Below, one piece after another: positions 33,001 to 36,000 of a stretch of 64,000 nucleotides of DNA. Position numbers: made by a program. The DNA lies in assembly GCA_964449585.1 (NCBI GenBank), contig CAYUZE010000001.1, positions 42,836 through 106,835 of the forward strand. The letters are read 5' to 3'. Origin of the DNA: an uncultured Gammaproteobacteria bacterium. Its GTDB lineage: Bacteria > Patescibacteriota > Microgenomatia > UBA10105 > UBA927. Position 1 is the first letter of the stretch; each line of letters opens with the position of its first letter.

Positions 33001-36000
33001 GAAAAATAGTTGGCATAAACTCGTAAAATCCCGGAATATCACACAAATAGACACTCTCTCGCGACGGGCTTACCGCGCCCTGCTGAAACGGGCTGATGTC
33101 TGTATTGCTCTCTATCATAAGCCTCCGCAGACTCCCTTATATTTTTTCCCTATGAAAATTCTGGACTATATGTATCACCAACGACCGGTGATTGCCTCGT
33201 CCTTCCCGGTCACTGCATCCATCATCACGCACGGGTCTGACGGATTTTTGGTACCCAATGACATTCAGGAAATCACCTATTCGATTATGAAACTTAAAAA
33301 TAATCCCGCCCTCAGAAAAGCCGTTGGCAAAGCGGCGCGTGCGACAATTGCCGGCAGATTTAGCGATCAACAGGCAATGCAAGCGTATAAGGCAGTAGTA
33401 GGATGATCGGGATCCGCACCACTATGTCAACCGTAAATTCACCATATACCCGTTTCGTCATCATCAGTTCGCACCGATCCGGATCGAATTATCTTTCTAG
33501 TTTGCTGTCCAGCCATCCCCAGATTATGTCAATCGGCGAGATTTATAATCCGTCGGTCTTATTTGCCGATCCGGGTTTACCAGGATTGCACCGGAACAGG
33601 GTGGCAAAATTGCTCCGGGACATTGCACCCGTTTGGTTCGTAAAACACGGCATTTATCGTGCATACCCAACGCACATCCGCGCGGTAGGTTTCCGATATT
33701 TTTATTTACATGCGCAGGGGAGGTTCCGTTCGGTTTTGAACTACCTGATAGCGGAAAAGACAATCAAAATCGTTCACCTAAAACGAAGAAATCTCCTCAG
33801 AAGCTACTGCTCGTTACTCGCAGCAGAGCAAACAGGGGTCTGGACAGTGCCGGTATCGTCCGCTCGCACACAACCACCGGTACGGCTTGTCTTGAAACCG
33901 AACGCATGCGCTGCGTATTTTGCGAGAATGGAACGCTTTATGGATACCTATGATAAATATTTCTCCGAACACGATATGCTCCAAATAGAATATGAGCGAC
34001 TGTTATCCGATGCGACTCACGAACAGACTCGGCTGACGACATTTCTCGGAGTAGCACCGTACACACTGACTGCATATACGAAGAGACTCAATGCGACGCC
34101 GCTCCCATCACTTATTAGAAACTATGCATCTCTGGAACGACACTTCCGCGGGACGAAGTGGTACCGGTTTTTTACATCAAACTAGCGCGACAATCGCTAT
34201 CGCACGAAGGATTACTATCAGTTGCCATCATAAAGGAGGGTTTGTGCGACGCTCTTTCCTGTCATCACCGGTGCGTGCGGTAATATTTTCGGCTTACCCT
34301 CAGTAAATCGCAGTCCGTAGTACGGGCACGGACAAACCGCAAACGGACACACCTCCGCGTCCTTAGCCAGGTCTAAGGTACCCTCAAACATATTACCCAT
34401 GACCTTATTGCTTGCATGACAACGAACTACATCACCGTTAAATCTGATATATACGAAGTCACGCCCTGCGCCGCATTTCAAACCTTTAAAGGTGAGATCT
34501 CCGACGATGAAATCCCTGTCTAAATTCGGATCCACATGGGTAGCCCCGATCTTTTCGTGCTTATCAGCGAGAAGAGAATATTTATTAAAAAGTTCCCGTT
34601 CTTTCAATGAATATTGTTGCGGATACTGCTTGTTTTCATATATGCCGCGGAACGACTTTGGACGAATGATAATATCGTCCTTCTGAAATTCTGCTGAGAT
34701 TTTTTCAAATAGGGGAATAACCGGAGGGTTAAACACCTGCGTTACATACGCATTAAATCCTGCTGCGCGTAATTTCTTGTATTTATCGACAAATAAGTCA
34801 ACTTTGTGCCGTTTTAAGCGTTCATTGTAGTGGAGTGCGCAATGGAGGAAAGCCACCCGGGAGGGATCTATTTCGTTGATAAAATCATATACGGTAGTAA
34901 GGGTCAGGTTGGTGTTTATGCTGATATAATGTCTTCTGGTAAGCTTTTTACAAAGCTCTACATATTTCGGATGAATGAACGGTTCCCCGCCGCTCATGTG
35001 AATGAGCCATGTTTTTCCTGATTTATCAAAAAAATCAACGATCTGATCAATGTTTTCATGACCAAGAAAATTTTTGTCTTTTAGCCTCGGATCCGTTGAC
35101 CAAAAACAGTAAGGACAAGAAAAGTTACAATAAAGATTCAACATCCAATCTGCCAGAATATCGTACTTTGGCTCAATTTTTCCAGGAATTTTTTTCATAC
35201 GGGTAGTGAAGGCAAGTATAGCAGATACCGCGGACAAAACACACGGATTTTATAACACATGGTCTCTGCAGGTGCGCATCTTGAAAATCTACTCAAATAA
35301 CACAAACACGATTATAATACTGACACGATTTACTCACTACACATCTTTCACTTGCTCGAATTACAATATGGGTAAAAAAACTCTTGCAGTAACCGGTCTT
35401 TCGGGCGTCATCGGCTCTGTGCTTCTGCGCCGCATAAAAATTCCGAACCACCTGATAGTGGATATGTATCACGATCATCCATATGCGGGAGCAAGTCCGG
35501 TACGTGAACATATACCGTTAAATTTGCTGCATAAAGAAAGTATCATAGCGGCATTAAATAAGGCAAAGCCGGATACAATACTCCATTTGGCCGCAATCAC
35601 CCACATTGATGCTTGCGAAGGTGATAAAAAAAACGGAAAAGAAGGGGTCGTCTGGCGAATAAACGTGGAAGGAACCCGAGCAATTGCCCAATACGGCAAA
35701 AAAAATAATATTCCCGTCATTTATCTTTCAACCGAATGTGTGTTTGACGGAACTATGGATTTTTATAACGAACACGCAAAAAAAAATCCGATTAATTGGT
35801 ACGGACGGACCAAAAGCGAAGCGGAGGATTTCATCCTATCCTCGGCTCCTGAAAACACCGTCATTCGTGCTGCAATTGCCTATCATAAAGAAGATAGCGG
35901 GAAAACATTACTCGGGAGAGTATATTATAGTCTCAAAAATACTACCCGAACGTATGCGGTAACCGATCAATTCATTACCCCGACGTATTCCCATGATATT

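Follow-up and report, generated by a model that had tools for sequence, protein, structure and literature searches.

Twitch-type radical S-adenosylmethionine (SAM) enzymes acting on sugars include the dehydrogenases BtrN and SpeY and the epimerases NeoN and HygY, which act on aminoglycoside intermediates and are encoded in actinomycete or Bacillus antibiotic clusters. To our knowledge, the radical SAM enzymes characterised as acting on carbohydrates come mainly from antibiotic pathways (BtrN, DesII, AprD4, NeoN, HygY, SpeY, and BlsE), and a literature search found no characterised radical SAM sugar enzyme from a surface-polysaccharide locus. Here, we describe a radical SAM gene, designated rSAM-1, located in a 64,000-nucleotide stretch of contig CAYUZE010000001.1 (assembly GCA_964449585.1, positions 42,836 to 106,835), which is referred to below as the window. 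The DnaA protein encoded at 62272-63639 of the window is 92% identical to DnaA of Candidatus Gottesmanbacteria bacterium, which identifies the window as DNA from near the replication origin of a bacterium of the Candidate Phyla Radiation (CPR). Judging from the sequence comparisons, it is fairly probable that rSAM-1 encodes a functional twitch-type tailoring enzyme for the assembly of a sulfated cell-surface glycan in this bacterium. The broader part of this proposal, that rSAM-1 works in a glycan pathway, can be put forward with good confidence.

In comparison with BtrN, SpeY, NeoN, and HygY, rSAM-1 shows no significant sequence kinship past the cluster-binding N-terminus (for BtrN, E was 0.0013, with no aligned stretch above the threshold). 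Unlike these enzymes, members of the rSAM-1 family are found in cell-surface glycan operons rich in glycosyltransferases (GTs) and in fusions with GT and sulfotransferase domains. BlsE, the cytosylglucuronate decarboxylase of blasticidin S biosynthesis (Protein Data Bank (PDB) entry 7vob), is only 14-19% identical to rSAM-1, and its NCBIfam model is absent among the 25 best matches listed for rSAM-1. The context of BlsE is a nucleoside-antibiotic cluster, whereas that of rSAM-1 is a polysaccharide locus. Neither the equivalog models nor the cognate pathway genes that define enzymes of the BlsE or BtrN type were found for rSAM-1.

rSAM-1 is an intact, well-conserved radical SAM gene. Its features, with residues numbered according to the open reading frame (ORF) of 339 amino acids (aa), are as follows:

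34218-35198, minus strand: coding sequence of rSAM-1 (ORF list, starts of homologues, Pfam Radical_SAM match, proportion of nonsynonymous differences)
35106-35129, minus strand: CxxxCxxC motif, C37-x3-C41-x2-C44 (CNFSCPYC in translation)
34980-34991, minus strand: GGEP motif, G83-P86, containing the SAM-binding "GGE" element
34326-34475, minus strand: C-terminal cysteine array C255-x17-C273-x23-C297-x4-C302-x-C304 (conservation, partial SPASM alignment, hairpin in the AlphaFold2 model)

The open frame occupies 34218-35237 on the minus strand (339 aa when counted from the TTG codon at 35237), and these were the limits given in the initial annotation. The gene itself was confirmed, and only its start has to be revised. 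An ATG codon at 35198, which corresponds to M14 of the 339-aa frame, gives a gene of 34218-35198 encoding 326 aa. Since in an alignment of 34 sequences the homologues, both close and distant, all start at M14, the true start is probably ATG 35198 and not TTG 35237.

The cysteines of the CxxxCxxC motif are ligands of the SAM-cleaving [4Fe-4S] cluster, and GGE is a SAM-binding element. The first of these motifs had been recognised in the initial annotation, and its presence was corroborated by the Pfam analysis, in which rSAM-1 matched Radical_SAM (PF04055) with 58.5 bits (gathering threshold (GA) 29.5, E 1.2e-15), a score that excludes a motif arising by chance. A match with Fer4_12 (26.8 bits) was also obtained. 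Thus, CxxxCxxC, GGE, and a Pfam score above GA, the features of the radical SAM superfamily, are all present. Among 160 aligned family members, C37, C41, and C44 are conserved at 98-99%, G83, G84, and E85 at 100%, and P86 at 97%, and all four residues of GGEP are invariant in the 34-sequence alignment. In the same 160 members, N110 (100%), H136 (96%), Y205/P206/Y209 (94-99%), and R272 (90%) are also strongly conserved. The motifs FRGxY...YPxxY and C-x17-C-x23-C-x4-C-x-C are particular to the family.

Comparison of rSAM-1 with the 89%-identical homologue from locus L004 (the loci compared here are numbered with L, and individual proteins with P) gave a proportion of nonsynonymous differences (pN) of 0.07 at a saturated proportion of synonymous differences (pS) of 0.85, which shows that the gene is real and that purifying selection on it is strong. 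The synonymous divergence is itself unusual. Between rSAM-1 (34218-35198) and its counterparts in L004 (10001-10981) and L001 (10001-10975), pS was 0.85-0.96, that is, above the saturation limit of 0.75, at a protein identity of 75-89%. This suggests differing codon or GC preferences between otherwise close genomes.

The full SPASM domain (PF13186 / TIGR04085) is defined by seven cysteines arranged as CX9-15GX4C-gap-CX2CX5CX3C-gap-C, which bind two auxiliary [4Fe-4S] clusters, together with a score above the threshold. In rSAM-1, only positions 1-39 of the 67 positions of the Pfam SPASM model were matched, with 18.7 bits against a GA of 21.5. The C-terminal cysteines are five only, and the CX2CX5CX3C block that supplies the ligands of the second auxiliary cluster was not found, which places rSAM-1 outside the SPASM family. 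The twitch domain is a shortened SPASM with a cysteine-flanked beta-hairpin and a downstream cysteine, providing ligands for one auxiliary cluster. This pattern is recognisable in rSAM-1 as C255, a hairpin (261-264/269-271), C273, and further C297 and C302, with cluster binding being predicted. The AlphaFold2 model of rSAM-1 (pLDDT 88.3, pTM 0.86) contains a partial TIM barrel followed by a C-terminal hairpin domain, in which the beta-hairpin 261-264/269-271 lies between C255 and C273, as in the twitch layout. C255, C273, and C297 are each conserved at 100% in the 160 family members, C302 at 86%, and C304 at 75%. According to these data and the model, the C-terminal domain of rSAM-1 is a predicted twitch-like half-SPASM with one putative auxiliary cluster and one spare cysteine. 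The initial annotation of a SPASM enzyme was therefore right as to an array of auxiliary-cluster cysteines, and has to be corrected from a full SPASM to the twitch type.

The same analysis bears on the idea that rSAM-1 is a maturase resembling the anaerobic sulfatase-maturating enzyme (anSME), oxidising a cysteine or serine of a sulfatase or another sulfur-handling enzyme. Such a function would explain the sulfotransferase gene adjacent to rSAM-1, and it is nevertheless highly improbable. In anSME (PDB entries 4k36-4k39), the SPASM domain is complete, two auxiliary clusters are bound, and the substrate is a protein, whereas rSAM-1 has a single-cluster motif, with the second half of SPASM and its cluster absent, and lies in a glycan operon with no sulfatase nearby. 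Membership in this group implies a cognate sulfatase with the motif C/S-x-P-x-R, and the Pfam scan of the large ORFs of the window detected no sulfatase family. No anSME model was found among the 25 best NCBIfam matches listed. In addition, the neighbouring proteins are sulfotransferases using 3'-phosphoadenosine 5'-phosphosulfate (PAPS), for which formylglycine is not needed.

The proposed sugar-directed role, which was a guess in the initial annotation, is supported by the gene neighbourhoods of the family in distant phyla and by its fusions. The close relatives L001-L004 keep the block GT2 / GT4 / sulfotransferase, rSAM, RmlD-like / GT8-like, in which the sulfotransferase, rSAM, and RmlD-like genes are syntenic at 75-89% identity. 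Distant members from Omnitrophota, Nitrospirota, Acidobacteria, Zixibacteria, Planctomycetes, and DPANN archaea are encoded in loci packed with glycan genes, often in polysaccharide operons with overlapping or abutting frames. Examples of these arrangements are the following:

L035: GT2, rSAM, GT4
L032: GT4, rSAM, GT2
L019: Wzx, rSAM, polysaccharide pyruvyl transferase
L010: GT2, UDP-sugar dehydrogenase, rSAM, second rSAM/SPASM
L020: PMT-like, rSAM
L006 and L007: GT4 divergent from rSAM
L008: GT2 divergent from rSAM
L005: Wzy and GT4 within three genes of rSAM

Among the 63 proteins encoded at most two genes from rSAM in 18 distant loci, GT4 (10) and GT2 (7) were followed by other radical SAM proteins (4), methyltransferases (3), pyruvyl transferases (2), and GDSL proteins (2). 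When ORFs within 5 kb of rSAM were analysed using locally built hidden Markov models (HMMs), GT2/GT4 accounted for 31 of 138 ORFs in the 18 distant loci and for none of 90 in 13 unrelated radical SAM loci fetched by the same scan (Fisher p = 4e-8). This co-occurrence analysis had been suggested as a check in the initial annotation, and the enrichment that it revealed does not extend to an actinobacterial clade of the family (0/122), which is discussed below.

Direct fusions with glycan enzymes were found in several members. P0085 is an rSAM-GT2-methyltransferase fusion, P0131 is a GT2-rSAM fusion, P0080 is an rSAM-methyltransferase fusion, and an ORF of 1279 aa in L021 combines GT2, an rSAM/SPASM domain, and a domain of the rSAM-1 family. 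P0066 is a Sulfotransfer_4-rSAM fusion, the rSAM part of which is 37% identical to rSAM-1 over the full length. The sulfotransferase domain of P0066 belongs to another family than the sulfotransferase encoded next to rSAM-1 in the window (33403-34185), indicating that the link with sulfotransferases arose at least twice. The archaeal contig L058, which holds the P0066 gene, also encodes GT2, GT4, a second rSAM/SPASM protein, a further Sulfotransfer_4 protein, an ABC-2 exporter pair homologous to that of the window, and a Sulfotransfer_3-like protein 26% identical to the window sulfotransferase. The gene set of the window, with rSAM, an ABC-2 exporter, GTs, sulfotransferases (in L058 of two kinds), and a second rSAM, is thus seen again in this archaeal locus. 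As the family occurs in glycan clusters and fusions and not beside peptide genes, the most likely activity of rSAM-1 is a radical reaction on a sugar of the cell surface. The recurrent sulfotransferase link suggests that the modified residue is sulfated or adjoins a sulfated one.

Several observations weigh against this assignment. The actinobacterial clade, which lacks the CPC motif after C297, has no GT2/GT4 among the 122 neighbours counted. In its place, a conserved operon is found that comprises rSAM, an archaeal-type SAM synthetase (PF01941), an unknown protein, a PhyH dioxygenase, an epimerase, and Methyltransf_21:

L009 (8001-14442), L024-L034, L038, and L040: actinobacterial loci (Micromonospora, Actinoplanes, Acrocarpospora, and others)

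Judging by its gene content, this operon probably belongs to a small-molecule pathway. The absence of GTs from this context implies that the rSAM-1 family is not uniformly glycan-directed, and function may differ between its clades. Furthermore, the adjacency of the RmlD-like gene is confined to close relatives. No characterised relative turned up in a literature search covering STM4011, the twitch and SPASM types, and radical SAM enzymes in connection with polysaccharides, capsules, O-antigens, and nucleotide sugars. The likeness of the predicted structure to characterised sugar-acting radical SAM enzymes is at the fold level only (12-17% identity, TM-score ~0.5). Fold searches with the AlphaFold2 model placed rSAM-1 among SPASM/twitch enzymes with no close relative, and gave the following figures:

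BlsE (7vob): 16.9; 14% identity; Foldseek TM-score 0.53-0.55
SkfB: 16.1; SuiB: 15.1; MoaA: 14.7; anSME: 14.5
BtrN: 12.8; DesII: 12.7; SpeY: 9.6

Finally, in L001 and L004, decarboxylases dependent on pyridoxal phosphate, methyltransferases, and a QueC-like PP-loop enzyme are encoded a few genes away from rSAM, so that the substrate could be a non-sugar substituent. In such a case, rSAM-1 would make or modify a group derived, for example, from an amino acid or nucleoside, which would later be attached to the glycan or remain a free metabolite. The window itself contains a QueC-like gene and a methyltransferase gene, and the actinobacterial operon without GTs is of a similar small-molecule character. 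This explanation is nevertheless considered unlikely. In the distant loci, the genes lying tightly against rSAM encode for the most part GTs, along with a flippase, a pyruvyl transferase, and a UDP-sugar dehydrogenase, and accessory enzymes of this kind are lacking among them. Where rSAM is fused directly to another domain, the partner is GT2 or a sulfotransferase.

The extent of the rSAM-1 family depended on the search. A word-indexed search for relatives yielded only 51 clusters at 90% identity. With an exhaustive profile search, the representatives at 50% identity numbered 841 at E<=1e-30 and 4747 at E<=1e-10. The genomes belong to Omnitrophota, Nitrospirota/Thermodesulfovibrionales, Acidobacteria, Zixibacteria, Planctomycetes, Desulfarculaceae, and Patescibacteria, as well as to DPANN archaea (Aenigmatarchaeota and Woesearchaeota), and a separate clade is found in Micromonospora, Actinoplanes, and other actinomycetes. 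The closest homologue among species-representative genomes is at most 52% identical, and the close relatives (74-89% identity) come solely from metagenome assemblies. Phage and plasmid collections added nothing beyond a true STM4011 protein from a plasmid, at 21.5% identity, and a single phage contig without annotation, at 25% identity. The HMM classification envisaged in the initial annotation was performed with Pfam and NCBIfam; beyond the generic Radical_SAM and Fer4_12, no family was above the threshold, and neither an anSME nor a maturase assignment was obtained. rSAM-1 is thus a variation on the twitch radical SAM theme that no curated family covers and that is linked to surface-glycan assembly in uncultivated lineages.

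The best curated match of rSAM-1, and the sole near-full-length one, is STM4011 (NF038073), with residues 36-304 aligned to model positions 11-253 of 278. It is also matched by all 34 aligned relatives (best E 1.8e-20), none of which has a better curated match. The STM4011 protein of a Paenibacillus plasmid is 22% identical to rSAM-1 over nearly the full length. It could be supposed from this that rSAM-1 belongs to an STM4011-type five-gene system and lies in the glycan island by chance. The true system is a cassette STM4015-4014-4013-4012-4011 (seen in L057, the Paenibacillus plasmid), in which STM4012 is a radical SAM protein and STM4013 a hydrolase; the literature search revealed no known function of STM4011. 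The score of rSAM-1 with NF038073 is 67.1 bits against a cutoff of 200, which leaves it outside that family. The window contains no homologues of STM4012, 4013, 4014, or 4015, and a tblastn search with the five cassette proteins matches only rSAM-1, via STM4011. Moreover, the association with GTs is conserved across phyla, so placement in a glycan island is not a matter of chance, and membership in the five-gene system has very little probability.

The remaining NCBIfam and PDB-sequence matches (PapB, MoaA, viperin, YydG, and SkfB) span only the generic first ~90 residues. Assignment as a viperin-like ddhNTP synthase was rejected: the matches cover residues ~30-113 only, with 36 bits against a cutoff of 180 (PDB matches to positions 7-94), and this type has no auxiliary cluster, whereas rSAM-1 has a conserved auxiliary cysteine array.

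Most radical SAM enzymes with SPASM or twitch domains are peptide maturases, and rSAM-1 could accordingly be a maturase of a ribosomally synthesised and post-translationally modified peptide (RiPP) of the sactipeptide, ranthipeptide, or epimerase type, with a precursor encoded elsewhere or missed. Weak N-terminal NCBIfam matches to the PapB, WgkB, YydG, and SCIFF maturases and the presence of SkfB, SuiB, and CteB among the nearest folds are in line with this idea. The NCBIfam matches, however, are confined to the generic N-terminal part mentioned above, and all maturase models are far below their cutoffs (43 versus 340 bits). RiPP maturases have an adjacent precursor gene and usually a RiPP recognition element (RRE). 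In rSAM-1, only ~24 residues precede CxxxCxxC, which leaves no room for an RRE/PqqD-like domain, and no PqqD/RRE match was found in Pfam. A scan of all frames for ORFs of at least 20 aa at 33200-36300 revealed no plausible precursor in the flanking gaps (32 bp and ~170 bp). Cross-locus comparison of intergenic small ORFs of the window with those of the syntenic L001 and L004 found no conserved one, and the small-ORF matches reported came either from comparing almost identical genomes or from reading the rSAM gene in other frames. A hidden precursor peptide was rejected on these grounds, in agreement with the initial annotation, according to which no precursor ORF was evident. As the neighbourhoods are glycan operons and not cassettes of peptide, protease, and transporter genes, a peptide maturase is very unlikely. 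The initial annotation had named two assignments that would contradict it, one to anSME and the other to a RiPP maturase accompanied by a substrate gene; both were searched for and neither was found.

If rSAM-1 acts on a cell-surface sugar, the following mechanism can be proposed. The CxxxCxxC cluster would cleave SAM reductively to form the 5'-deoxyadenosyl radical, which would take a hydrogen atom from a carbon of the sugar; the substrate may be a sugar attached to a nucleotide or lipid, or else the glycan under assembly. The radical left on the substrate could then pass an electron to the auxiliary [4Fe-4S] cluster (C255/C273/C297 and C302) with formation of a keto-sugar, as in BtrN and SpeY. 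Alternatively, it could receive a hydrogen atom back from a spare cysteine (C304 or C302) with formation of an epimer, as in NeoN and HygY. The specific assignment of the reaction as dehydrogenation or epimerisation is tentative. Given the UDP-sugar dehydrogenases encoded in L010 and L007 and the fold similarity to BlsE, uronic acid chemistry (C5 epimerisation or decarboxylation) is also possible.

A more speculative suggestion, which we regard as rather doubtful, is that an unrecognised class of GT-coupled radical SAM enzymes acts directly on cell-surface polysaccharides, while these are lipid-linked or still growing, and functionalises their C-H bonds by radical chemistry. The reactions could be epimerisation at the polymer level, oxidation that creates or conditions sulfation sites, or the formation of C-C or C-S bonds. 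Such a class may be widespread in CPR, DPANN, Omnitrophota, and their relatives, with several of these enzymes per glycan operon. Should rSAM-1 act on the glycan, it would represent a new type of tailoring reaction for bacterial and archaeal cell-surface glycans, among them the sulfated ones made by CPR and DPANN organisms of very small genome size. For enzymologists, the fusions with GT, methyltransferase, and sulfotransferase domains are a well-defined set of proteins to start from, with a pointer to the substrate. If rSAM-1 is an ordinary BtrN-like dehydrogenase, the result will be an incremental annotation.

The immediate surroundings of rSAM-1 in the window are as follows:

31316-32341, minus strand: GT2 glycosyltransferase (Pfam)
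32333-33406, plus strand: GT4 glycosyltransferase adjoining the sulfotransferase (Pfam)
33403-34185, plus strand: PAPS-type sulfotransferase, convergent neighbour of rSAM-1 (Pfam Sulfotransfer_3, 48 bits)
35199-35367: divergent intergenic region of ~170 bp between rSAM-1 and the RmlD-like gene (sequence)
35368-36309, plus strand: RmlD-like NAD(P)-dependent sugar-nucleotide reductase, divergent neighbour of rSAM-1 (Pfam RmlD_sub_bind, 153 bits)

The flanking genes correspond to those in the initial annotation. The sulfotransferase gene is separated from rSAM-1 by 32 bp and is adjacent to rSAM also in L001-L004, where the order GT2, GT4, sulfotransferase is repeated. The RmlD-like short-chain reductase actually starts at ATG 35368, matches the NCBIfam rmlD model with 152 bits (below the cutoff of 224), and keeps its adjacency to rSAM in L001, L003, and L004. 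With a convergent gene on one side and a divergent gene on the other, rSAM-1 is monocistronic by orientation. A scan for promoters and terminators gave sites no more numerous than in shuffled sequence; the intergenic region 35199-35367 contains a single weak sigma-70-like site (35338-35367, plus strand), fewer than the chance expectation. A regulatory RNA or riboswitch in this region was rejected, as no Rfam match was obtained anywhere in the window.

Scans with Pfam and NCBIfam showed that the window from ~23.8 kb to ~62 kb consists almost wholly of glycan genes, which bears out the placement of rSAM-1 in a glycan island. Besides those listed, the island encodes an initiating phosphoglycosyl transferase, an epimerase, a GT-C-like protein, several GT4 proteins, a methyltransferase, Wzx, Wzy, a GDSL protein, a DegT aminotransferase, and a carbamoyltransferase. 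Two groups of genes lie on either side of the rSAM-1 region:

25557-26441, plus strand: ABC-2 permease (Pfam)
26445-27407, plus strand: adenosine 5'-phosphosulfate (APS) kinase (Pfam; NCBIfam apsK, 175 bits, above the cutoff)
27421-28197, plus strand: ABC ATPase (Pfam)
36451-37296: GT8-like protein (Pfam, NCBIfam)
37302-38213, plus strand: QueC-like PP-loop protein (Pfam, NCBIfam)
38245-39393, minus strand: GT4 (Pfam, NCBIfam)
39387-40109, minus strand: PIG-L de-N-acetylase (Pfam, NCBIfam)
40145-41002, minus strand: PseB/FnlA-like 4,6-dehydratase (Pfam, NCBIfam)

The first three genes (25557-28197, plus strand) form a predicted exporter operon with a built-in PAPS supply. The APS kinase, which is found also in L001 and L003, is 320 aa long. 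For its first ~145 residues, the only match is a faint one of cytidylyltransferase type, and a bifunctional sulfurylase/kinase model aligns to the protein from residue 68 onwards. A gene for ATP sulfurylase was not observed in the window. The block 36451-41002 is partly syntenic in L001 and L004. The QueC-like protein, also found in L004, matches the QueC model only in the C-terminal half of the model. Instead of acting on deazapurines, it may be a sugar amidotransferase or an adenylating enzyme.

Three Wzy_C-like proteins (13759-15060, 45579-47123, and 60157-62154) and two Wzx-like flippases (12428-13729 and 44178-45578) are encoded within ~50 kb, in addition to the ABC-2 exporter. Genomes of CPR bacteria are typically only ~1 Mb in size, and in view of this and of the content of the window, surface glycans look like taking a large share of the genome. 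Four large ORFs (464-689 aa) in or beside the island have no Pfam family (18485-19879, 21556-23625, 28213-29652, and 51557-53299), and 28213-29652 has no NCBIfam match either; ORF 19899-21515 shows only a sub-threshold match to DUF7305. Other landmarks of the window are YidC (15527-16330) and a tyrosine integrase (11-634).

Other forms of the rSAM-1 family were also noted. Two full copies of the domain are present per polypeptide in P0052-P0056 and P0078 (590-624 aa), and tandem paralogues occur as adjacent genes in L018 (53-2175). In P0057, P0058, and P0064, the domain is fused to B12-binding radical SAM domains.

The window contains a second radical SAM gene, rSAM-2:

43244-44272, plus strand: rSAM-2 (Pfam Radical_SAM 63 bits; SPASM 24.8 bits, above the threshold)

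It is located between a GT4 gene and the ORF of the Wzx flippase, whose annotated start (44178) overlaps rSAM-2 by 95 bp. No curated family claims rSAM-2, its best NCBIfam match being TIGR04053 (76 bits against a cutoff of 395). rSAM-1 and rSAM-2 are not paralogues, as their BLASTP similarity is at the motif level only. They were also rejected as a conserved pair, since a counterpart of rSAM-2 was not found beside genes of the rSAM-1 family in other loci; the second radical SAM proteins of L006, L010, and L058 resemble it weakly (25-27% identity over part of the length). The initial annotation correctly counted two such enzymes in the locus and described this as unusual. However, several radical SAM genes in a single glycan operon recur in L006, L010, L021, L058, and L060 (CPR, DPANN, Omnitrophota, Acidobacteria, and Planctomycetes), which makes two of them less unusual in these lineages. 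Judging from these loci, the presence of two radical SAM genes appears to be a recurrent theme with no fixed pair. In L060/L061 (2592-13534; GCA_018816335.1 and an ENA contig), four radical SAM genes of one operon are found among glycosyltransferases, encoding a radical SAM protein of 343 aa, a GT4-rSAM/SPASM fusion (693 aa), a MiaB-like protein (UPF0004), and the rSAM-GT2-methyltransferase fusion P0085.

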